A stretch of DNA of 21,717 bases from Promethearchaeota archaeon (GTDB lineage Archaea > Asgardarchaeota > Hermodarchaeia > Hermodarchaeales > Hermodarchaeaceae). Every line of letters starts with the position of its first letter. Within the stretch, counting starts at the first letter, position 1. The stretch lies in the NCBI GenBank assembly GCA_048939245.1, contig JBHLPR010000035.1, positions 1 to 21,717 on the forward strand, written 5' to 3'. Shown here piece by piece: positions 8,470 through 21,654 of the stretch. The translations under genes and the position numbers were made by a program. The notes below the pieces were generated by a model. The model was given only the letters and a program-made list of their open reading frames with translations, did not search any database and was not told the DNA's origin.

Positions 8470-8790
8470 TCATTCGGATTTTTCCCATAGTTCGATAAAT
8501 CGTCGAAGCGCTAGAGCCCGAAGATTCTCGATTTTATAACGATAAATCCGAATCCGACCAAATGTTTTCTCTTGAACAAGTTTTGCACGTTCTAGAAGTT
8601 GAAGATGTCTTCGTGTTGTACTATGATTCAACTGTGTTCTCCTAGCGATTTCAGAGATGTTCAGTTCCCCACACTCCGCTAGAAGACGTATGATCTTAAT
8701 TCGCCCGCGCGAGGAAAACAGAATCTCGACAGGAATTGGTCGATCATCCGTTAATTGTTCAAGGAGTGGAGGTTTTGACTCCTCAACCAC
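8470..8790 (-). CDS. ArsR-like winged-helix DNA-binding protein coupled to cdc6
   Basis: LFSSRGRIKIIRLLAECGELNISEIARRTQLNHSTTRRHLQLLERAKLVQEKTFGRIRIY. The start overlaps the cdc6 stop. Confidence 0.85.
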   Translation of the reverse strand: MVEESKPPLLEQLTDDRPIPVEILFSSRGRIKIIRLLAECGELNISEIARRTQLNHSTTRRHLQLLERAKLVQEKTFGRIRIYRYKIENLRALALRRFIELWEKSE

Positions 8791-9994
8791 GTCTTACACC
8801 TACTTTCCTTTTTTCAAGGAGGAGTTCTAGTTCGCGCTCTAGAACTGCTGCAGGGATGTCAGGCAGGCTGATTAGAGTAGTATTACCGCGTTGCCCAACA
8901 CTGGAACTCTTCGTCGTGAGAATTCCCAACCCTACAAGATCCTGAATGTACGCCCATATCTGAGTATGAGAACGAGGAGTCTGTACGTACTCTTCGCAGA
9001 CAAGTCCATAACGAACCTCCAGAGCACCAGTAGTGACATAAGCGTCTTCTGAAGGCTTTAGCAACCTACATACGGCAATTAGAAGGAGAATTTGAGAGGT
9101 TGATAAATCCACGAGAACTTCACGTCGTATCTCCGGCGTGATAAAAGCCTTTGCGCTTCTTACGAATTCGGGCAATATTCGGAGTACGCCCTTTTCGTCG
9201 GCCACTTTTCCGGCATTGTATAGCACTTCTAATGCGTAGCGTGCATCCCCCGAGGCACCTGCTATGTCTGCTATCAAATCAAGTGTGCTAGAAGGAACGG
9301 CTCCGTCTAAAACCGCCTCTTTTACCCGAAAATTTAGGATATCTCGAAGCTGGCGGGAATTATAACGGTTAAACCGGAGCATGTTTTTCTGAAGAGTACT
9401 CCATGTGCTCGGATCGCGAATATAGCCAAATAGGGGGGTTCGGCTTATGCCAATTAGTGATACACGTTGTTGGGCATTTAGCCGATCATCGACAGTACGC
9501 GATAGCAGGTAGAGCAGCTCTTCACCACAACGTTTGAGAAACACTCCGAGTTCATCCAGTGTCACAAGCAGATAGAGATTTTTCGATTCTATGTACTCCA
9601 GAATTATTGAAAGGAGTTCCTGTGTTGATAGCCCCCTAAGCGGAATACCAGTCTGGAACGTTGAGAGGATTTTGTTTAAAATCATGTATTCTGTTCGTTC
9701 ACGACGCGCATTAACATGCACATATATTAGATTAAATCCGTGACTCTTTGCAATCTCAACTAGGAGTGTTCCAAATAGCTTAGTTACCGAGGTTTTCCCA
9801 GAGCCAGTGTCCCCAACAATTAGTACTTTTTGCGATATTTTACCAGGCGCTTCAATTACACCACGGAACAACTGAGTTAACTTGCGTAGATGTTCCTCCC
9901 GATGGGGGAGGTTGGGAGGAACATAATCGATGGAAAGCTTCGCCTCATCAATGAATACAGATGGGCGTTGTAATTCATGTCGAATAATCTCCAT
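8783..9994 (-). CDS. cdc6: Orc1/Cdc6 family protein, Orc1-2/Cdc6-2-like subfamily
   Basis: LSIDYVPPNLPHRE, Walker A GDTGSGKT, Walker B VTLDE, GDARYALEVL, and wHTH PRSHTQIWAYIQDL..LGIL...GQRGNTTLISL. The likely start is ATG 9994 (GGAGA upstream), not 10165. Confidence 0.95.
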   Translation of the reverse strand: MEIIRHELQRPSVFIDEAKLSIDYVPPNLPHREEHLRKLTQLFRGVIEAPGKISQKVLIVGDTGSGKTSVTKLFGTLLVEIAKSHGFNLIYVHVNARRERTEYMILNKILSTFQTGIPLRGLSTQELLSIILEYIESKNLYLLVTLDELGVFLKRCGEELLYLLSRTVDDRLNAQQRVSLIGISRTPLFGYIRDPSTWSTLQKNMLRFNRYNSRQLRDILNFRVKEAVLDGAVPSSTLDLIADIAGASGDARYALEVLYNAGKVADEKGVLRILPEFVRSAKAFITPEIRREVLVDLSTSQILLLIAVCRLLKPSEDAYVTTGALEVRYGLVCEEYVQTPRSHTQIWAYIQDLVGLGILTTKSSSVGQRGNTTLISLPDIPAAVLERELELLLEKRKVGVRRG

Positions 9995-10115
9995 CCTGTG
10001 TTCTCCGTTCGCTATATTTTGAACATCGAGTGGGTGTAATAAAAGAACAGACAGAGTCGAAGATAAGTGAACTAACCCCGAAGATGAAAAAATTCGAGAC
10101 CGAAATGAATGTAAT

Positions 10116-10652
10116 TTATTTTTCATCAGTGTTTTCGGAAAAGACACGCGTTTGGAGATATTCACCTAACACGGTTAATGCATAGCTAGCCAAGCGTGAG
10201 TTTTCGTTCTGAGGATAATTGTGTCTTCGAAGTTGTGCAGCGTTAAGAATCCTATTGAGCGTGATGAAAATATCACGTGAATCGTTAACGAGTAGAGAGA
10301 TGCGATCTTCAGGGACATGAATTTGTTCCTTTAAGGAAATTCTTCCTCTCTTACCCTCATCGATGAATAGAATAAGGAACACGAGGGCCATAACTCCAGT
10401 TATCGTGTAACGAAACGTGACCGACGAAAAGGGATAGGGAACAGTGTCACCAGAAATGAAGATAATAAGCTCAGAAGCGGAGAAACTAATCGCTACAATG
10501 GATAGCCCCACTAGGGTAAATACTGCACGTATACGTCGTCGAGTGTATACGTCTTTGATTATCGTATCAATGAATAATAATTCACCAACCAGTGGATATA
10601 GAAGGAAGAGGAGTGTTGCACGCATTCCTGACACAGGTTTGGGTTGATTCAT
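10116..10652 (-). CDS. Hypothetical membrane protein (about 3 TM helices plus a cytoplasmic tail)
   Basis: Three hydrophobic segments; it fills the gap between cdc6 and the divergent ostC. The start is uncertain (ATG 10652 or GTG 10670). Confidence 0.6.
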   Translation of the reverse strand: MNQPKPVSGMRATLLFLLYPLVGELLFIDTIIKDVYTRRRIRAVFTLVGLSIVAISFSASELIIFISGDTVPYPFSSVTFRYTITGVMALVFLILFIDEGKRGRISLKEQIHVPEDRISLLVNDSRDIFITLNRILNAAQLRRHNYPQNENSRLASYALTVLGEYLQTRVFSENTDEK

Positions 10653-12514: not shown

Positions 12515-12550
12515 TTTAATGAATTCAATGAATTTAATATTTTTAATAAA
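12515..12550. repeat. 9-bp tandem array 1 (TTTAATGAA TTCAATGAA TTTAATATT TTTAATAAA)
   Basis: Four phased units filling the xpd-radB gap. Confidence 0.85.
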
Positions 12551-12554
12551 CCTT

Positions 12555-14480
12555 TTAAAATTCTGTTAGCGAATAGAATTTTTTCAAATGAGTATAAAGT
12601 TCTCCATCAGCATCGTTTGACCCCTTTAAGTTTTCATTTATCCAACTAGGAAGTAAACGTCTGCACAAAGAAGTAGCATACCGATCGTCTAAAAATACTA
12701 TTACCCCCTTGTCTTCAAGCCTTCGAACAGAACGTCCTGCAGCTTGTGAAGCACGTCGCATTGCTGGTAATTGATATCCATATAATCGACCTTTTTGAGG
12801 GAAGTGCTGTTCGAAATAATCAATTCTAACGGTTTCCTTTGGACTGGGTTTCGCATAGGGAACCCCGACGATTACTACTGTCTCCATTTCTTGACCCGGA
12901 TAATCCTCTCCTTCACTATTTCGTCCACCTAGAACACCAAGAAGAACGGCTCCATCTTTGGCCCTTCTCTTAAACTTTCGAACCAGTGAATCGTTTTGAG
13001 CAGAAGACATCTTGGGCCTTTCAATAAACAGTTCCCGATTGAGTAATTTCTCCAAACCTGTAGCAAGAAGGGATTGTATCACAGCATATGACGGAACAAA
13101 GATCCCAACATTATGAGGAGTTGCTTGACAGACCTCTAGAATACGACTGTTAATTTTTTCAAACATTGTAGGAGTTCGGTATCTCATCAAAGTGGTAACT
13201 CCTTGACTAACTATTGGAAGAATCTGATCACAAGTAAATGGAGAAGGCAAATTCAATACCCGTGAATTTGCTGGTAAACCAACTAAGTCAATATGCGCGC
13301 TGATTGGTTCCAAGGTACCTGATAAATGAACGGAAGCATGACATGAATTTAACACAGAGGCCGTTGAAGTTCTTGGATCTAATGCAACTATTTCAATACT
13401 AGCTGAGGATTTATTATTGACAGTTCGATTCACAAAATAAGCAGCATCAGTTCTTTGAAGAAAATAACACCAACGAGTAAAAAATTGTGCCACAGAATGA
13501 ATGTAACTTATGGGTGGCTTTCCTTCTCCTATTAATTTACTTAATATCCTGTCACCGATCTTAACCATAGTGTTTGAAAAATTCTCAAAATCATCAATGC
13601 CTAGAACCTCGCAAATTTGCGCAGTCAATTGTATAGGATCAAATTGTATCTCCTGCCCAGCGTTATCATCGATAATTTGCTGCAATATATTTTCAAACAC
13701 TTGATAGAATTTACTAAGTCTCAATAGCGCATATTGATTTGCTTCTTTCTTTGATTGACGGATTGAATAGAAAGACAATTTAGCTGATGCCAATTCAACA
13801 GCAATACGAGGTAAATTGTGAGCCTCATCAAGAAGTAAGACTGTATGAGAAATGGAATGACCAAAGGCATCGAAAAATAGTGCATTGATATACGGATCAA
13901 AAATTTGAAAATAAGTCGTGGCCACAACGGTCATTAATGGTAATAGGCGCTTTGAAAGTTCATAGGGGCAAACTCTTTCTAACTTACATTTCTCGCGAAG
14001 TTCTAATCCTGTAAGTGGAGTTTGATAAAATGTTCGTAGATAGTCTTTATCATTCTTTATTTTCTTCATGAAATTTCGATAGTACTCACATCGCCCCGAA
14101 CGTTTTAGTTGACTACAAATAAACATTGCAAGTTGCGCGTTCTTCGCATATCTGTGAACTACTTGATTCAAACATGAAGAAGCACGTCCTCGAAGGACTA
14201 CCCCGTTGAATCCTGTTGATTCGGAAATAGGTCGGAGCTCCTGCATAACACGGTCAAGCTGCTTATGTGTTCGGGCAACATATAGAATACCAAATCTTTT
14301 CTTTTCTAGTAGAGTCAGGACCCCTGATATGGCTGCAATAGTTTTCCCAAATCCATTCGCTGCTTCAACACAAAGGTGATTTCCCAGAGCAACTTCTTCT
14401 TGAATTGAATGGATAAGGGAGAGCTGACCAGGTCTTGGCACCGCATATGGAAAGTAGTTTTCAATGTGTTTTGAACCCAT
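12555..14480 (-). CDS. xpd: XPD/Rad3/DinG family Fe-S DNA helicase
   Basis: FPY..PRPGQ Q-motif, AANGFGKT, YVARTHKQL, Fe-S cysteines (SSCLN, FICSQL, GRCEYY, VCPYE), LLDEAHNL, LSGTLEP, SEGEDY, QAAGRSVR, DDRY. The start is ATG 14480 (GGTGAGG 9 nt upstream) or 14498. Confidence 0.95.
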   Translation of the reverse strand: MGSKHIENYFPYAVPRPGQLSLIHSIQEEVALGNHLCVEAANGFGKTIAAISGVLTLLEKKRFGILYVARTHKQLDRVMQELRPISESTGFNGVVLRGRASSCLNQVVHRYAKNAQLAMFICSQLKRSGRCEYYRNFMKKIKNDKDYLRTFYQTPLTGLELREKCKLERVCPYELSKRLLPLMTVVATTYFQIFDPYINALFFDAFGHSISHTVLLLDEAHNLPRIAVELASAKLSFYSIRQSKKEANQYALLRLSKFYQVFENILQQIIDDNAGQEIQFDPIQLTAQICEVLGIDDFENFSNTMVKIGDRILSKLIGEGKPPISYIHSVAQFFTRWCYFLQRTDAAYFVNRTVNNKSSASIEIVALDPRTSTASVLNSCHASVHLSGTLEPISAHIDLVGLPANSRVLNLPSPFTCDQILPIVSQGVTTLMRYRTPTMFEKINSRILEVCQATPHNVGIFVPSYAVIQSLLATGLEKLLNRELFIERPKMSSAQNDSLVRKFKRRAKDGAVLLGVLGGRNSEGEDYPGQEMETVVIVGVPYAKPSPKETVRIDYFEQHFPQKGRLYGYQLPAMRRASQAAGRSVRRLEDKGVIVFLDDRYATSLCRRLLPSWINENLKGSNDADGELYTHLKKFYSLTEF

Positions 14481-14544
14481 TATCCTAATCCTCACCATCT
14501 GAATATCCTAGAAGGATAAAAACCTCATTTAATTAGCAAGGGTA

Positions 14545-14570
14545 TTCATTAATTCATTGAATTCAATGAA
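14545..14570. repeat. 9-bp tandem array 2 (TTCATTAA TTCATTGAA TTCAATGAA)
   Basis: Contains the perfect 18-bp palindrome TTCATTGAATTCAATGAA at 14553-14570, upstream of xpd. Confidence 0.9.
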
Positions 14571-14665
14571 ATTCTTAGATTAACGGTTTCTAATTCTACA
14601 ATAAAAAATGCGAGATAAGAAAACGAGCCTCTAATAAATCTCTCTTTAAATCGATCCAAGAAAAA

Positions 14666-14685
14666 GGGGTAGGCATGCCTACTCC
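14666..14685. repeat. GC-rich inverted repeat GGGGTAGGCATGCCTACTCC
   Basis: Perfect 14-bp palindrome GTAGGCATGCCTAC (14669-14682), extendable with one G-T pair, in an otherwise AT-rich intergenic region. Confidence 0.6.
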
Positions 14686-14794
14686 CCATCATTGTGTTCT
14701 AATCCATAGAATGAAATGTGTCGCTAGCCAGGTTCTTAATGGTATTGAGTGCCATTCGGCTCTGAACCAGATGTCAGGGATGTGAGGGAATTCC

Positions 14795-15292
14795 ATGTTA
14801 CTTACACTTCTCGGTATTTTCGGGATGCGTAGATTCCAACTGAAGCACCGCAATCATTTTATTATTATCAACTTGAGCCTACTAGCTTTAGCAACCATGG
14901 AAACAACGATAACCCTCTGGCAACCTGACTATTTCTATGGGGTCCCCAATATACTCCAGTGGATAATTTCCATATTAGGAGGGAAATTTGCTGTATTGGC
15001 TGCCTTTCCTTTTTCTGTAAAAATCTTCTTTTCTGCGTTTTGGTTAGAATGGGGGGAATACCATCTTTTCATTTACCTCGGTAACCTGCCAATTATTAAC
15101 CTGCAGTCCCCCACAGTGCCAGTCGGGGGGGTCGAACGATTACTCTGGATGCTACGCATTCGAATACTCGCCTTTCCCATCGTGTTCCTGCTAAACCTAA
15201 CCTTCTTTCCAATCTATATTCTTATACAATACGGCATCCATCAACTCCAATCAAGGGAATCGAGTAAAATGACTTATCATTATAATAACTAA
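14795..15292 (+). CDS. Hypothetical membrane protein
   Basis: 165-aa ORF with several hydrophobic segments and no recognisable motif. The start may be ATG 14825. Confidence 0.5.
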   Translation: MLLTLLGIFGMRRFQLKHRNHFIIINLSLLALATMETTITLWQPDYFYGVPNILQWIISILGGKFAVLAAFPFSVKIFFSAFWLEWGEYHLFIYLGNLPIINLQSPTVPVGGVERLLWMLRIRILAFPIVFLLNLTFFPIYILIQYGIHQLQSRESSKMTYHYNN

Positions 15293-15491
15293 CAAAATTA
15301 GAAGTGGTTACGCTCCACACAATCGGATACGTTACACAAAGATAACGGGGAAAGAACTGCTTCTATTTTAATGGAGAATTAAATACTGGTTCCTTTGGAA
15401 TTGATTTGACAACATTGTTGATAACCAAATACAACAGTTTTTAAGAGTCTGTTCTTTACGTATACAAAATTGTATCCATGGAGATGATGAT

Positions 15492-16004
15492 TTGCCAAGA
15501 AAGAACGAAATCGAGGAGACCCGTTCTTGGGCGCGTAGAATGCTAGAAGACCCGATTACCAAATTATTAGCAGAAAATAGTCAGTTATCTCAGGTTCAAC
15601 TTGAAACCCTGGTACTCGATTATCTTCTGGATGGATTTGGGGGAAAACGCATCGACTATCAAACGAAAGCATCCTTGAGAGGCCAAAAAGCAACCAAGGT
15701 AAAGCAGGGTGGTGTTAGTAGAGGAGCTTTCAACCGTTCACTTGCTCAAGCAAGACGAAATGTTACGAGGTCCGTTTTTACATTAGTTCTTCTTGGTTAC
15801 CTAGGGTTATTTGATACCCCAGCGCTAATGCGATACCAAGATCTTGCAGAAGATATTCGAAGCTATGCACGTGAATATGATATTGTTGCAACAAATAAAG
15901 AAAAACCAACTCAAACTCATCTTAACACCCTTAAACAAACACAGGAACGCATTTTACAGCTTATTGAAGCTCTCGCTCAACCTATAGCCCTCAAACCAGA
16001 ATGA
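15492..16004 (+). CDS. Conserved-looking archaeal HTH protein (Tfx/sigma-region-4-like)
   Basis: SQLSQVQLETL ... DYQTKASLR...VSRGAFNRSLAQARRNVTRSVFTLVLLGYLGL resembles an HTH followed by a long dimerisation helix. GGAGA RBS before TTG. Confidence 0.6.
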   Translation: MPRKNEIEETRSWARRMLEDPITKLLAENSQLSQVQLETLVLDYLLDGFGGKRIDYQTKASLRGQKATKVKQGGVSRGAFNRSLAQARRNVTRSVFTLVLLGYLGLFDTPALMRYQDLAEDIRSYAREYDIVATNKEKPTQTHLNTLKQTQERILQLIEALAQPIALKPE

Positions 16005-16008
16005 AACC

Positions 16009-16028
16009 TTTCAATGAATTCATTGAAA
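16009..16028. repeat. 9-bp tandem array 3 (TTCAATGAA TTCATTGAA), perfect 20-bp palindrome
   Basis: TTTCAATGAATTCATTGAAA lies in the 42-bp gap between two convergent stop codons. Confidence 0.9.
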
Positions 16029-16046
16029 ATCTTAATATTTTGAAGA

Positions 16047-16619
16047 TTATGATACTTGATCAATAATGTGTTTTCCCGTAGCTGTGATTATTAACTCATC
16101 TTGATTCTTCTGAAGATAATCCTTATTGAGTAGGTAGTTAATAGCTCGGCCAGAATATTCCAGAGAGAACCCAGCATTAGAAAGGTCGGATTGGTTGATG
16201 CTTCCTCCCTTTTTCTGAATTTGAAATAGAACAGAAAGATATCCGTAATTAATAATGAGCTTGCTGGTCATGTCAATGTCCTCGTCATATTTCATTGGCC
16301 AGAGCGAAGTTGGTAACCAACCAGTAAAAGTGTAAAATATCACTTCGTTGAATGAGCGGAGTAGATTGATAATTTCATCCTCTGATCCAGGAGGAACAGC
16401 TAAAACACTTTTTCCTAATTTTATGTGAGGTATTTGATCTAACACACCGGGATAGTGATAGTTTCGAACAATGATTTCTCCATTTTTTAATTGCTGTTTG
16501 ATTTGTTGACTGTGACCATACAATTCCCTGAAGAACCGGGTTTTCCGAGACTGACTCACTCCCTTTTGGTGTTTAAAATCAAAAGAAATAACACTGACAT
16601 GCTTCAAATCATCAGACAT
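16047..16619 (-). CDS. Hypothetical protein: Cas2/VapD-like ferredoxin-fold N-domain plus C-terminal wHTH
   Basis: N-domain VISFDF...RKTRFFRELYG...GVL...KLGKSVLAVP...EIINLL. C-domain VLFQIQKKGGSINQSDL...GRAINYLLNKDYL....LIITATGK is a typical wHTH. GAGGT RBS. Confidence 0.6.
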   Translation of the reverse strand: MSDDLKHVSVISFDFKHQKGVSQSRKTRFFRELYGHSQQIKQQLKNGEIIVRNYHYPGVLDQIPHIKLGKSVLAVPPGSEDEIINLLRSFNEVIFYTFTGWLPTSLWPMKYDEDIDMTSKLIINYGYLSVLFQIQKKGGSINQSDLSNAGFSLEYSGRAINYLLNKDYLQKNQDELIITATGKHIIDQVS

Positions 16620-16707
16620 CGAATTTGTAACCTCAAGATATTGGTATAAGACAAATTATACCAGAACCCCCTCTAAAATTAGTAACGACTTAGAGTAACT
16701 AGACTAG

Positions 16708-16743
16708 TTCAATATCTTCATTAATTTTAATGAAGTTTATGAG
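16708..16743. repeat. 9-bp tandem array 4 (TTCAATATC TTCATTAAT TTTAATGAA GTTTATGAG)
   Basis: Phased units whose core forms the inverted repeat CTTCATTAA-TT-TTAATGAAG (16716-16735), directly downstream of the RHH gene. Confidence 0.8.
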
Positions 16744-16760
16744 TTTATAAAGGATGAGGG

Positions 16761-17129
16761 TTAGCTTTCGCGTTGTAACTTCTTGTAAACATCAGGGAAA
16801 TCGGATTTCAGTTTCTCTTCTAACGCTTCAGCTATGAAACGAGACTTACCACCGAACCCTGCGTATTGTCCTTGCCCTGATTTTGTTGCTGCTAATGCTA
16901 CGAAATCCAAAGCAGCTTTAATCCAAGCAGGAACACTTGCACTGATTGTTCGACGCCCTTCGTATTCGCTTTCAATACGTAACCGCTTTAACCCAGAGTC
17001 GCCAACTCTTGTTGAAAGTTCCTCTAGCTCAATCTCTTTTGTTTCTGTTGATTGGGGTTTTTCCTGGGATTTGGATTTTGACTCCTTTTCCTTTTTCATT
17101 CGTTCTCTAATTAAGTCAGTAGCTGACAT
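16761..17129 (-). CDS. Ribbon-helix-helix DNA-binding protein with a long charged N-terminal tail (ParG/omega/SegB-like architecture)
   Basis: Strand RRTISASV, helix PAWIKAALDFVALAA, turn, helix KSRFIAEALEEKL. The N-terminal ~55 aa are K/E/S-rich. TAA-GGTGA-AAAAA-ATG couples it to the ATPase stop (start 17129). Confidence 0.72.
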   Translation of the reverse strand: MSATDLIRERMKKEKESKSKSQEKPQSTETKEIELEELSTRVGDSGLKRLRIESEYEGRRTISASVPAWIKAALDFVALAATKSGQGQYAGFGGKSRFIAEALEEKLKSDFPDVYKKLQRES

Positions 17130-17139
17130 TTTTTTCACC

Positions 17140-18459
17140 TTAGACAAATGTGGATCCTTTCGTCCAAAGCTCAGTGGCCTGTATCTGACCTGCTTCTGGA
17201 CTATAGATTAGACCTTGTTTTTCGAATAAGTCGAAATCTTCTAACACGCTTTCCCATGAACGCTCTTGACTTTGGAGCCATGATTCAATATCGTCAAGAG
17301 TACGGGGAAAAGATAAGAATTCCAAAAGGGTAGTTTGAAAATTGTTAAACTCCGCTCTCGCTCGTGTTACTTCTTTTTGGGCAAACTGCTGAATGTATTC
17401 AGCATTAATATGATATGCTGATAAGACCTGATCAAATGTGTAACCGTCATTAACCAGAACCTCAGCGCCACGAATCGCATCTTGAAGAGATCTCAAGAGG
17501 AGTTCGAGCATAATTCCAGGATTGCCACCAGAGAAATTATAAATCGCTTCTAATGCCTCTCCTGTGAATGGGGTTAGAATTGCCTTAATTTTTGAGGAGT
17601 TTAGATCAATACTCTCTTCTGGGTCCTTACTAATTTGATCAATTGACCCCTTGAGATAGGCGAGTCTCCAAAGTAATACCTTCATCGCGCTGATTTTTTT
17701 CATTCTACGCATATCATAGATCTCAACAAACCGTCGTCGAATTGCGGATTTATTTCCATGACCTAATGTTTCTCCAACTGAGGAAAGAAGTTCAAGTGTT
17801 TTAACAGCACTTTCCCCAATACGCGTAATTATCGCAAGAGCCAAAACAAGGTAACGCCGACCATCCTTGGTCTTATCATTTACCATTCGTAGAAGAGTGT
17901 CGACAATACGTACACGATTATCTGGCCTTTGCCGTTCTAATTGTCGAAACTCGTCTATCAACAAGACATACGAGGTTCCATTCTCTTCAGCATCAGTTCT
18001 CAAAGCCAATAATAGACGGGAAAGGCGTTTTGCTATTGATCCACTTCTAACTACCCTAACGCCTACTTTGTCGATTAAGAATTCACGAACGGTCTTTTCA
18101 CCTATGTTAGCGTGAACAAGATCGTCTATCAACGCGTCAGCCGAGCTGACTCCTTCAAGACGAATCGCACGAATGTTGGGTAGACGATTCAAGGACTGCT
18201 GAATCATCTCTAAGAAAGTTGTTTTGCCTGCACCTAGGGGACCAGAGACCACTACGCTAGCAGTTTGGTTTCGAAGATAGTTGACCGCACGTTTAATCGC
18301 TAGGGCTTCTTCTTCAGGGACCACGTACAAATCCTCTGAGTCTATACCAAAGAGTTCAATCCGTTCATTTTTGAATCCCCACTTTGAAAGCATTTGCTGA
18401 TCAAATCTTTGTGTTTGCTCGACTAATTTATCAAGTTCACTCAGACAAAACACACCCAA
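17140..18459 (-). CDS. AAA+ ATPase (ExeA/AAA_22-like) with C-terminal winged helix
   Basis: Walker A GPLGAGKTT, Walker B VLLIDE, putative Arg finger AIRRRF, lid FTGEALEAIYNFSGGNPG, and a C-terminal LLEFLSFPRTLDDI...FEKQGLIY wHTH. It lacks the ParA deviant KGGxGK motif. Confidence 0.8.
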   Translation of the reverse strand: MGVFCLSELDKLVEQTQRFDQQMLSKWGFKNERIELFGIDSEDLYVVPEEEALAIKRAVNYLRNQTASVVVSGPLGAGKTTFLEMIQQSLNRLPNIRAIRLEGVSSADALIDDLVHANIGEKTVREFLIDKVGVRVVRSGSIAKRLSRLLLALRTDAEENGTSYVLLIDEFRQLERQRPDNRVRIVDTLLRMVNDKTKDGRRYLVLALAIITRIGESAVKTLELLSSVGETLGHGNKSAIRRRFVEIYDMRRMKKISAMKVLLWRLAYLKGSIDQISKDPEESIDLNSSKIKAILTPFTGEALEAIYNFSGGNPGIMLELLLRSLQDAIRGAEVLVNDGYTFDQVLSAYHINAEYIQQFAQKEVTRARAEFNNFQTTLLEFLSFPRTLDDIESWLQSQERSWESVLEDFDLFEKQGLIYSPEAGQIQATELWTKGSTFV

Positions 18460-18521
18460 TATTAACTTCAGAGAAGGTTATTCGATAATAAATAATTATT
18501 GATTGTATTTAAGATATAAAA

Positions 18522-18557
18522 TTTAATTATTATATTAAATTCATTGAATTTAATGAG
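18522..18557. repeat. 9-bp tandem array 5 (TTTAATTAT TATATTAAA TTCATTGAA TTTAATGAG)
   Basis: Four phased units in the very AT-rich region upstream of the ATPase gene. Confidence 0.82.
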
Positions 18558-18569
18558 TTTTCGCTTCAA

Positions 18570-19163
18570 TTATTTTTTTGTGAATGCAATGATATCGATT
18601 TTTGTAATTATCCCCACAGGCCTATTTTGGTCTAGAACCAAGAGTGCCTCAATTCCAGACGCAATTTTAGAAAGGGCTAATTCAGAAGTATCCTTAACGT
18701 CAATTGTTGGAAATGGAGGTTCCATGATCTCTCTAACAGAAAGCCCAAACACTTTCTGTGATTCGATAGTCATTAATTGTCGGATTATTGCGCCTTCGCT
18801 AATCGATCCAACTGCATTATTTCCCTTTATAACAGGAAGCTGTGAGATTCCATGACGCCTCATTAGGATTACGGCGCGTCTTACTTTGTCCTCAGGAGCA
18901 ACCCATATTAGTGGATTTAATTTCGAAGAATGGCCTTTCCATCGTATTAAATCTCCAATTGTTAAATGAACTTTCTCTTGTTTCTTAATAACTTTGAGAA
19001 TACGTTTGAGAGTGATTATACTAGGATTCACTTGACCTTTTTCAATACGGGCAACTAATGACTGACTAATACCTACCTCATCAGCTAGCTCTGCTTGAGT
19101 TAGTCCCACTTTTCTTCTAAGCTCTTGCAATTCCTCTGGTGTGGGTACGCGAAAATCAGACAC
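18570..19163 (-). CDS. XRE-family HTH transcriptional regulator with C-terminal CBS pair (COG3620-like)
   Basis: PTPEELQELRRKVGLTQAELADEVGISQSLVARIEKGQVNPSI, plus CBS motifs VAPED.V..A..LM..HGISQLPV and VREIMEPPFP...GIITKID. The likely start is GTG 19163. Confidence 0.92.
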   Translation of the reverse strand: MSDFRVPTPEELQELRRKVGLTQAELADEVGISQSLVARIEKGQVNPSIITLKRILKVIKKQEKVHLTIGDLIRWKGHSSKLNPLIWVAPEDKVRRAVILMRRHGISQLPVIKGNNAVGSISEGAIIRQLMTIESQKVFGLSVREIMEPPFPTIDVKDTSELALSKIASGIEALLVLDQNRPVGIITKIDIIAFTKK

Positions 19164-19251
19164 AGATAATACACCGTCTTTAGGTACTATAGGTAATAAC
19201 TCCAAAAGAATTAATACTCTGCTGGAATCGGTGAAGAATGGAGATGACACC

Positions 19252-21570
19252 GTGACAAAAATCCAACAAGCTGAAATTCGAGTCGTCGGTGTCGTTCAAG
19301 GAATAGGTTTTCGACCATTCATTTATGCACAAGCTGTTAACCGGGGATTAAGCGGCTATGTTTTAAACACGGGAAATTCTGCAGTCCGAATAGTGGTTGA
19401 GGGGGAAAAACAGAAAATCATTGAATTCATTAAATCCATTGAAAATGACAAACCATACTTAGCGGTTATTGACAGCATACAGACAATCTGGAAGCCCTCA
19501 AAGAAACAATTCCCAGATTTTCAGATTCGCCATTCCAAGAATGAAAAGAAGGCAGGTGGATCTGTTATTCCCCCAGATATCTCTGTATGTCATGATTGTA
19601 TTGATGATATGAATGACCCCCAATCACGTCATTACCAGTACCCTATGACTTGTTGCGCCATTTGTGGTCCTCGTTATACAACAGTAACAGACACTCCATA
19701 TGACCGTGAACGAACCACAATGAATGATTTCCCCCTATGCGAAGATTGCGATTCTGAGTACAATGACCCTTTAAATCGGCGATATAACGCTCAAACTATA
19801 TGCTGTCCAGTTTGTGGACCTACTTTTCAATTATTCACAGCAGACGGTTCAGTAATTGGATGTGGTGATCCCTTTCTCGAAACGGTAAAATTATTGAATG
19901 AAGGAGCCATTGTAGCAATCAAGGGATTAGGAGGGATTCATCTTGCAGTCCGTGCGACGCTAGATGCCCAAGTGCAACGATTACGTAAATTACGAAACAA
20001 ACCTCACAAACCCTTTGCCATAATGTCTAAGGACCTTGATATGGTTAGACAATATGCCTCTGTCAATACTACAGAAGAACGACTACTTATTTCATGGAGA
20101 CGCCCAATCGTTGTTTTAAATCAACAAACTCCATTCCCACTTTCTCCTTCTCTAGCACCGAATTTAGATACAATCGGTGTGATGCTTCCCTACTCAGGAA
20201 TTTACCTCAGGCTATTTGAAGGATTACAGGATCTTGCACTGGTTATGACAAGTGCAAATCCAGTAGGGCTACCCACCATTATTCACGAATCAACATTCCA
20301 AAGAAATTTCATGAAGATGGCAGATTATTTTCTTAGCCATAATCGAGCCATCTATCAACGCTGTGACGATTCAGTTATAATACCGATATTCAACCAAGAA
20401 CTCATTATCCGTCGTTCAAGAGGATACACACCTGAGCCCATAGACACAGCTGATGGTGGCCCAACGATTCTTTCTTTGGGTGCTTTAGAAAAGAACACCG
20501 GAGCTATTTACCATAGGCGACGAATCTATCTTACTCAACATATTGGAGATGTAGATACTGTTGAAGCCTTGAAATACCTTCAGGAAAGCTTATCACATCT
20601 GCAACGACTGCTCCGAGTTTCTGATTTCGAAGCTGTTGCTTGTGATTTGCACCCTGATTTCCTAACTACCCAATATGGTAACGAATTGTCAAGAGATCAC
20701 GAAATTCCACTCATTCAAGTACAACACCATCATGCTCATCTTGCTTCCCTTCTAGCAGATTTCAAGCTTCCATCCGACGAAAAAATCGTAGCCATCTGTT
20801 GCGATGGAGCTGGTTATGGCCCTGATAATACTATTTGGGGCGGGGAGATTCTCGTTGGTAACGCCCAAGACTATGCTCGTTCAGGTTTTCTCGAACCACA
20901 AATCATGCCTGGGGGAGATCTGGCTGCACAATATCCGTTTCGTATGTTACTGGGCATACTTTCTAAGAAATACGCGCACACCGAGTTATATGATCTCTTT
21001 GAGGGGGAATCCAGAACAGCCTTACCTCAAGGTCCAAATGAGCTCAAAGTAATTCTTGCCCAAATCCAGCAGGAAATCAATACACCATTAACTTCGAGCA
21101 CTGGTCGATTATTGGATTCACTTGCAGCCTTACTAGGAGTTTCTTATCAGAGAACCTATGAGGGAGAGCCAGCTATCCACTTTGAAGCCTTTGCCAACAG
21201 AGGTAACTCTAAGATACGGTTACAAACACCTATTGAACAGAAAGGAGAAAAAAGAATTCTAAAAACAGGTATCTTGGTAGACCAAGTATTGAAACATCGT
21301 GATAGATACAAAGGTCCCGATTTAGCGTTGGCAGCACACCATAGCATTGCTCAGGCATTAGCACAAGCGGCTATTGGCGCGGCTAATTCTCAAGGGATAT
21401 CCAAGATTGGATTTTCTGGAGGAGTTGCCTTTAATAAAATTTTGACACGAAGCATTAAATCAGAAATCGAAAAAGAAGGAATGGAATTTCTTATTCATCG
21501 AAACATTCCTCCAGGTGACGCAGGAACCTCCGCGGGGCAATCTCTTGTTGCTCGTGCAAAAATCAATTGA
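19252..21570 (+). CDS. hypF: [NiFe]-hydrogenase maturation carbamoyltransferase HypF
   Basis: Acylphosphatase GVVQGIGFRPF, two CxxC-x18-CxxC zinc fingers (CHDC/CAIC, CEDC/CPVC), KGLGGIHL, RRSRGYTP, QHIGD, HHHAH, DGAGYG.D..IWGGE, TSSTGRLLD, SGGVAFN, PPGDAG. Start GTG 19252 with a GGAGA RBS. Confidence 0.97.
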   Translation: MTKIQQAEIRVVGVVQGIGFRPFIYAQAVNRGLSGYVLNTGNSAVRIVVEGEKQKIIEFIKSIENDKPYLAVIDSIQTIWKPSKKQFPDFQIRHSKNEKKAGGSVIPPDISVCHDCIDDMNDPQSRHYQYPMTCCAICGPRYTTVTDTPYDRERTTMNDFPLCEDCDSEYNDPLNRRYNAQTICCPVCGPTFQLFTADGSVIGCGDPFLETVKLLNEGAIVAIKGLGGIHLAVRATLDAQVQRLRKLRNKPHKPFAIMSKDLDMVRQYASVNTTEERLLISWRRPIVVLNQQTPFPLSPSLAPNLDTIGVMLPYSGIYLRLFEGLQDLALVMTSANPVGLPTIIHESTFQRNFMKMADYFLSHNRAIYQRCDDSVIIPIFNQELIIRRSRGYTPEPIDTADGGPTILSLGALEKNTGAIYHRRRIYLTQHIGDVDTVEALKYLQESLSHLQRLLRVSDFEAVACDLHPDFLTTQYGNELSRDHEIPLIQVQHHHAHLASLLADFKLPSDEKIVAICCDGAGYGPDNTIWGGEILVGNAQDYARSGFLEPQIMPGGDLAAQYPFRMLLGILSKKYAHTELYDLFEGESRTALPQGPNELKVILAQIQQEINTPLTSSTGRLLDSLAALLGVSYQRTYEGEPAIHFEAFANRGNSKIRLQTPIEQKGEKRILKTGILVDQVLKHRDRYKGPDLALAAHHSIAQALAQAAIGAANSQGISKIGFSGGVAFNKILTRSIKSEIEKEGMEFLIHRNIPPGDAGTSAGQSLVARAKIN
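19417..19443. repeat. 9-bp tandem array 6 inside hypF (ATCATTGAA TTCATTAAA TCCATTGAA)
   Basis: Three phased units, each one mismatch from TTCATTGAA, encoding IIEFIKSIE. Confidence 0.7.
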
Positions 21571-21604
21571 TTTTATTCAAATCAAAATGATTGATGAATT
21601 GATT

Positions 21605-21640
21605 AACAATGAGCTCATTTATTTCATTGAATTCAATAAT
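21605..21640. repeat. 9-bp tandem array 7 (AACAATGAG CTCATTTAT TTCATTGAA TTCAATAAT)
   Basis: Four phased units downstream of the hypF stop, with further degenerate units at about 21590-21607. Confidence 0.82.
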
Positions 21641-21654
21641 GTTCCAGTGGAAAT
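21641..21654 (+). promoter_or_regulatory. ORB/mini-ORB-like sequence GTTCCAGTGGAAAT
   Basis: Matches the core of archaeal origin recognition boxes (TTCCAGTGGAAA) but has no G-string. It is intergenic and directly abuts array 7. Confidence 0.5.

Follow-up and report, generated by a model that had tools for sequence, protein, structure and literature searches.

A Hermodarchaeota contig of 21.7 kb (C22, from a 2.5-Mb genome), analysed here in its entirety as the window (21,717 nt), carries an AAA+ ATPase gene coupled to a gene for a small predicted ribbon-helix-helix (RHH) protein. The pair lies within a field of phased nine-base repeats that ends at the replication origin, oriC. From sequence comparison we read these elements as a three-part partition or origin-positioning system in which an ATPase with the ORC/TnsC/MuB fold would be a new kind of NTPase (probability roughly 0.6). 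With slightly less assurance, we propose that an AAA+ ATPase and an RHH adaptor define a fourth class of DNA partition, found on chromosomes in much of Asgard and on plasmids in euryarchaea. The preliminary description of this DNA had suggested a segregation role, and the comparative predictions of that role, i.e. one repeat focus, linkage of the pair, a local repeat, origin proximity and a non-ParA AAA+ fold, all held.

Both genes lie on the minus strand. The ATPase ORF (17140-18459) precedes the RHH ORF (16761-17129) by 10 nt, and this gap contains a ribosome-binding motif and reads stop-GGTGA-A5-ATG, exactly the coupling first described. The ATPase (437-439 aa) is 82-91% identical in 14 congeners, a conservation that exceeds that of hypF, xpd and radB and matches that of RFC and Cdc6. 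It has a standard Walker A (GPLGAGKT), a Walker B (DEF) and an invariant arginine run at the finger position, while the sensor-2 arginine of the Hermod protein is replaced (lid motif GGNPG). Pfam gave an AAA_22 match of 29.5 bits (cut-off 27) and no Cdc6_lid or Cdc6_C match, whereas the true cdc6 matches both; TIGR02928 scored 12.9 bits against a cut-off of 181. The original statement that the motor is neither ParA, actin nor tubulin agrees with the P-loop AAA+ assignment from both sequence and model. The Walker A is not the deviant form of type I partition motors, PF13614 (ParA) had no match in the ATPase, and the fold differs from the actin and tubulin folds of type II and III systems (ParMRC, TubZRC).

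The ATPase model (pLDDT 80) matched Cdc6/ORC (Z 16), archaeal ATPases, TnsC (Z 13.7-15.4) and MuB (Z 13.0), and its residues 22-437 align to 1w5s and 2qby with Z 15-16. Closest to it among Atlas models are a Thorarchaeota cluster and proteins of the ExeA/AAA_22 type, with TM up to 0.85 by target. Judged from the model, the fold resembles Orc1/Cdc6 and TnsC/MuB about equally, so that control of initiation or copy number stays a real rival to partition. The protein had been called an ExeA/AAA_22-like AAA+ ATPase with a winged helix. The family and fold stand, but the C-terminal winged helix that follows the lid is limited to the Hermod/Ranarchaeia form and is absent from the Thor, Odin and plasmid forms. 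P0133, a look-alike that bears a winged helix, has no RHH neighbour. Unlike the bacterial ExeA-type matches, neither the window nor the compared loci contain transposase or secretion genes.

The partner protein (122 aa) is predicted to comprise an N-terminal tip (residues 1-14), a linker (15-31), a strand (59-66) and helices (68-118). The tip is conserved and the linker charged and variable; the tail as a whole has low model confidence. Pfam and PDB sequence searches with the RHH family were blank, and Foldseek of the monomer model gave nothing useful. Residues 58-117 (model pLDDT 62) matched mostly RHH proteins. These structure matches are weak but consistent (VIA Z 3.3-5 to TraM, ParD2, PutA, SegB and omega), and among the language-model neighbours are clusters of RHH and centromere-binding proteins, in line with the C-terminal RHH and N-terminal tail originally proposed. 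A downstream RHH protein with a flexible N-tail, as predicted here, is the arrangement of type I partition operons. The tip helix is common to all ATPase-linked RHH homologues and is missing in three loci without the ATPase, a loss that may be a single event. A complex prediction of the ATPase with two RHH copies scored 0.06 (mark 0.32) and is evidence neither for nor against contact.

The repeat field consists of seven arrays, each of two to five pseudo-palindromic 9-bp units with the core TYAWTRA, spread over 12515-21640, i.e. about 9 kb around the pair, at distances of 0.7-2.2 kb. Array 1 (12515-12550, four units) lies at the radB start, forms the left end of the field and is kept in relatives. 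Array 2 (14544-14570, two to three units starting at 14544 or 14553) is upstream of xpd, and array 3 (16010-16027) lies in the gap of two converging genes. Array 4 (16708-16752) lies immediately 3' of the RHH gene and 5' of a gene for a 190-aa protein. Array 5 (18522-18557), upstream of the ATPase and beside a TATA-like run, is probably an autoregulatory site at a putative promoter. Array 6 (19417-19443) is within the hypF coding sequence, and array 7 (21605-21640) forms the right end of the field. Arrays on both sides of the pair and five more to the left and right had been noted before, and all seven were recovered, although array 6 sits in a reading frame and is not intergenic. This array is the most synonymously constrained stretch of hypF, as the 8 highest of 687 codon windows overlap it; on this sequence measure it is under selection as DNA.

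Seven period-9 TYAWTRA dimers occur on the 21.7-kb contig versus three, all isolated, in the remaining 2.5 Mb, a single focus of the kind foreseen for a centromere-like site. Local shuffles gave a mean of 0.05 dimers (maximum 1 in 1000), and control spacings of 7-15 other than 9 gave 0-1 dimers on the contig. In all 14 related loci the arrays are at identical positions as far as the loci reach, and in two relatives no arrays were found in the 20 kb past the origin. As in type I partition loci, the repeats thus form a replicon-unique cluster in cis near operon and origin. In the AT-rich family f9, TYAWTRA trimers are single and scattered and a reversed control also rings; we regard them as background.

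At 21642-21652, abutting array 7, is what we take from the established consensus to be an ORB-type box of oriC. Another contig of this genome, C81, carries a second ORB together with the origin-linked cdc6. The field is placed as ending at oriC because DNA matching the C81 start continues from the right end of the window in three relatives. The pair had been located on the chromosome near cdc6 and an ORB-like box; the box stands, but the cdc6 of the window (8783-10165) is 2.4 kb outside the field, and the origin-linked copy is that of C81. The former overlaps a small ArsR-type winged-helix gene (8470-10165 together); the genus conserves this arrangement strongly, and it recurs in family f12 (L141). 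Between xpd and the gene for a 170-aa protein lies about 0.8 kb absent from relatives (14581-15450), which holds a 165-aa ORF (14795-15292) without a family; the segment was unmatched elsewhere in the genome, in the fetched loci and in Rfam. Rfam had no match anywhere in the window, and PADLOC found no defence system in it and weak P-loop matches only. By eye, 5-1483 presumably encodes the C-terminal portion of a paralogue of elongation factor 2 that lacks the usual diphthamide histidine motif.

The ATPase and RHH genes are present in 14 of 14 congeners. In the sister genus the pair was found in none of four genomes (80-83% complete), and the origin region was not located via ORB boxes. The pair (55% identity) is also retained in Ranarchaeia and in one unlabelled locus, with the same TYAWTRA-type repeat amid other flanking genes; where these contigs extend far enough, ORBs and cdc6 are nearby. 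The linkage expected from the preliminary description therefore extends beyond the genus; one lineage, represented by Asgardarchaeia-type loci, has the RHH gene without the ATPase and only one or two arrays, one of them at an ORB. In one Hermod bin (G009), contig C249:2-955 encodes a Thor-type ATPase (84% identity) that is probably contamination.

A Thor-type contig, reached via the neighbouring 170-aa gene, encodes a 324-aa AAA+ protein coupled to a 97-aa RHH-like protein, with RTAWTAY arrays at period 9 next to ORBs and within hypF. Relatives of this ATPase are present in f6 (55/60), f2 (4/4), f7 (5/5), f18 (5/6), f20 (3/3), f26 (1/1) and f27 (3/5). The Thor-, Odin- and Freya/Jord-type loci that were read have the ATPase followed by a tailed RHH-like ORF, near hypF, the 170-aa gene, an HTH-CBS gene, cdc6 and ORBs. 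That other Asgard groups would have a local repeat of their own was a further expectation of the preliminary description, and such repeats were indeed observed, as GATATC at period 13 in f7/f18 and as a weaker period-10 form of RTAWTAY in f2/f20; arrays are weak in Odin-type loci. Repeat sequence and period co-vary with the RHH lineage. In a complete genome (3,576,204 bp), 16 of 18 repeat matches fall in 11.4 kb around the operon. Every match lies within 5-28 kb in four of five Thor-type genomes, and the fifth has degenerate arrays only.

The RHH profiles of the Hermod and Thor lineages can be aligned (84%, E 7.5e-6), and the ATPases of the two share a lid signature at 96.7%, versus 62% with Cdc6. 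In the ATPase tree, the Thor, Freya/Jord, Odin and plasmid proteins group at 88/83 and the Hermod ATPase stands outside on a long branch with an open fork. Its grouping with the Thor/Odin/plasmid forms is not rejected (p-AU 0.22), nor is a grouping with Cdc6. These other forms, which have no winged helix, group with ExeA-type proteins. A distant ATPase relative (P0131, E 1e-32) is encoded on a 1.2-kb contig (L038:3-1186), where the next ORF opens with the same RHH tip motif, which points to an additional lineage. In many Asgard families neither the pair nor ParA was seen, so the pair must be dispensable there or replaced. Given these families and the presence of SMC, the system is not universal.

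Searching with the Odin-type ATPase revealed cassettes on plasmids of euryarchaea, namely pNG100 and plasmids of Natrinema, Halomarina, Haladaptatus, Natronosalvus and Methanohalobium. In each cassette read, the ATPase is followed by a tailed ORF of 101-177 aa with an RHH-like pattern, identified by inspection and with weak cross-lineage profile support. AT-rich phased repeats of 6 or 7 bp lie upstream and in several cases also downstream, and compact versions have two short arrays only. This layout is closely the same as that of type I RHH partition cassettes. In four records orc1/cdc6 is the next annotated gene after the cassette. Of five plasmids searched with PF13614 (ParA), four gave no match, among them two of about 30 kb. 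The cassettes of L144-L148 and L158-L160 are annotated as hypothetical proteins.

In family f12 (3/3), parA and parB occupy the same origin neighbourhood, ahead of the genes for the 170-aa and HTH-CBS proteins, and phased arrays were not found in these loci. This swap could be a single event. Among 251 Asgard genomes, ParA of the f12 type was seen in five, none of which belongs to an ATPase-RHH family; the ParA-superfamily matches of our Hermod genome are MinD/CooC-like by inspection and located elsewhere. In one f12 genome, broken ORFs that by eye resemble an IS200/IS605-type insertion lie between parB and the 170-aa gene (L137:8530-9783).

Three neighbours of the cassette deserve mention. 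The HTH-CBS gene (18570-19250, minus strand) is a persistent neighbour of both cassette and parAB, and the 190-aa gene (16047-16619, minus strand) is a genus-restricted one with a weak C-terminal winged-helix match. The conserved 170-aa HTH-like protein (15492-16004, plus strand) belongs to a family of 1803 homologues (Thorarchaeota, Bathyarchaeota) that tracks the pair across Asgard, is also beside parAB, and in the loci read is near cdc6 or ORBs (between ORB boxes in L031/L032). It is possibly an accessory part of the cassette, and its family is itself a candidate for a role at the origin or in segregation. As the sole binder of the arrays it is unlikely, because the Bathyarchaeia-type locus L041 and f12 have the gene without phased arrays; it may still act as a helper. 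A further family of about 154 aa with a weak winged-helix match lies between cdc6 and ORBs in most Asgard loci read (L042:18445-18909, L032:6738-7205, C81:559-996), and L041 has a look-alike.

We infer a mechanism of four steps, namely RHH binding, ATPase oligomerisation, tip-triggered release and origin movement. Each palindrome would be occupied by one RHH dimer, and cooperative binding along the phased units would mark some 10 kb next to oriC, the first DNA to be replicated; the array upstream of the operon would give autorepression. The ATP-bound ATPase, shaped like ORC, TnsC and MuB, would oligomerise on DNA without sequence specificity. The N-terminal tip of the RHH protein would then touch the ATPase and cause hydrolysis and release, much as the SegB and ParG tails act on ParA-type motors and MuA on MuB. 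SegB residues 1-21 and the ParG tail stimulate their own ATPases (PMC8682754), and MuB is an AAA+ protein that coats DNA and is taken off by MuA (PMC3894238). Local stripping or bridging would finally move sister origins or hold them apart, the job of ParA-ParB in f12. The parA-parB genes in the same slot and the cassettes on ParA-less plasmids are additional lines in favour of partition. Against it are the Cdc6/ORC proteins among the best folds and the end of the field at an ORB box, and SMC could do much of the segregation.

In a second explanation, less probable but serious, the ATPase is an ORC-like regulator loaded by the RHH protein beside the origin. It would control initiation or copy number by helping, blocking or timing Orc1/Cdc6, e.g. 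by sequestering origins once they have fired or by pairing sister origins. The top structure matches would fit such a regulator, as would the last array touching the ORB box in every Hermod relative and in Asgardarchaeia-type loci, the plasmid cassettes directly before orc1/cdc6 and the Hermod-Cdc6 grouping that the tree does not reject. However, the ATPase has no match to the Cdc6-specific domains, the other forms lack a winged helix and cluster with ExeA-type proteins, and the field extends 9-28 kb from the ORBs. Partition genes, too, adjoin origins and rep genes, and in f12 it is parA-parB that fills the slot.

A local regulon is very improbable; in it the RHH protein would repress radB, xpd, the 190-aa gene and its own operon in the manner of MetJ or omega, with the ATPase as a signalling or remodelling partner. 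Archaeal RHH cell-cycle regulators are a precedent (CdrS, PMC7439475; aCcr1, PMC9976892), four of the seven arrays precede a gene start by no more than about 130 bp, one of them beside the TATA-like run, and one lineage retains the RHH protein without the ATPase. Yet arrays also occur between converging genes, after hypF and in coding DNA, and the divergent HTH-CBS/hypF gap has none. The flanking genes vary by lineage while the field keeps to the origin, and the genome has no cluster elsewhere; the sites are thus not confined to promoters of a constant gene set, as those of MetJ/omega-type repressors are. A repair regulon of radB and xpd is rejected because the arrays are still there in two loci from which xpd is gone (L003, L012). 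Finally, we give little credence to a static organiser, with arrays that tether the origin to a cell structure or load SMC and an ATPase that is scaffold and not motor: dispersed short sites 0.7-2.2 kb apart would suit looping or anchoring, the sensor-2 arginine is missing and SMC is present, but the two Walker motifs and the arginine run do not vary, plasmid versions make do with two short arrays, and no membrane or SMC gene is linked.

Under the preferred reading of partition or origin positioning, the closest known system is SegAB-segS of the Sulfolobales, which likewise pairs an NTPase gene with a downstream gene for a tailed RHH protein, has short repeats by the operon and lies near an origin (PMC8682754, PMC12139799). 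One of the RHH structure matches is SegB (7duv), in which additional helices likewise surround the RHH. SegA, in contrast, is a deviant-Walker ParA ATPase whereas the Asgard cassette has an AAA+ protein with a lid, and the cassette differs further in its 5-12 arrays over 9-28 kb directly at oriC. ParF-ParG-parH (TP228) and delta-omega (pSM19035) share the operon order, the flexible N-tail and the phased repeats on both sides, but their motors belong to the ParA family, unlike the AAA+ protein here. Chromosomal ParABS is similar in its origin-proximal dispersed sites and its slot in f12, although neither of its proteins shares ancestry with the cassette; ParB is an HTH CTPase clamp with a 16-bp site.

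The ATPase model has the AAA+ core, lid and winged helix of Orc1/Cdc6, which give the best structure scores and share the origin linkage. Our ATPase differs from them in the family matches, the sensor-2 arginine and an identity of 10-18%, and two true Cdc6 genes are nearby. To our knowledge, Orc1 has no RHH partner. TnsC, MuB and ExeA are alike in the AAA_22 domain, the structure scores and the nearest Atlas models, and the ATP-dependent DNA filaments of TnsC/MuB, removed by a partner, are a model for the mechanism; unlike them, the cassette has no transposase, transposon ends or secretion genes, is inherited vertically at 76-98% identity and has an RHH partner. The cassette would thus function like SegAB or ParFG with a motor that is not ParA, and by sequence it appears to lie outside Orc1/Cdc6 and the transposon ATPases too. 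Partition types are defined by Walker, actin and tubulin NTPases, none of them AAA+ (PMC13245405).

For the segregation machinery of Asgard archaea a recent review names possible ParA/ParB homologues only (PMC7617429), and true ParA is found in 5/251 genomes. A literature search of incomplete coverage found no description of an ATPase-RHH cassette. Even if the ATPase controls initiation, the cassette would be an undescribed origin-bound machine. Since plasmid copies exist in culturable haloarchaea (pNG100, Haloarcula marismortui), the question is open to existing genetics without an Asgard culture.
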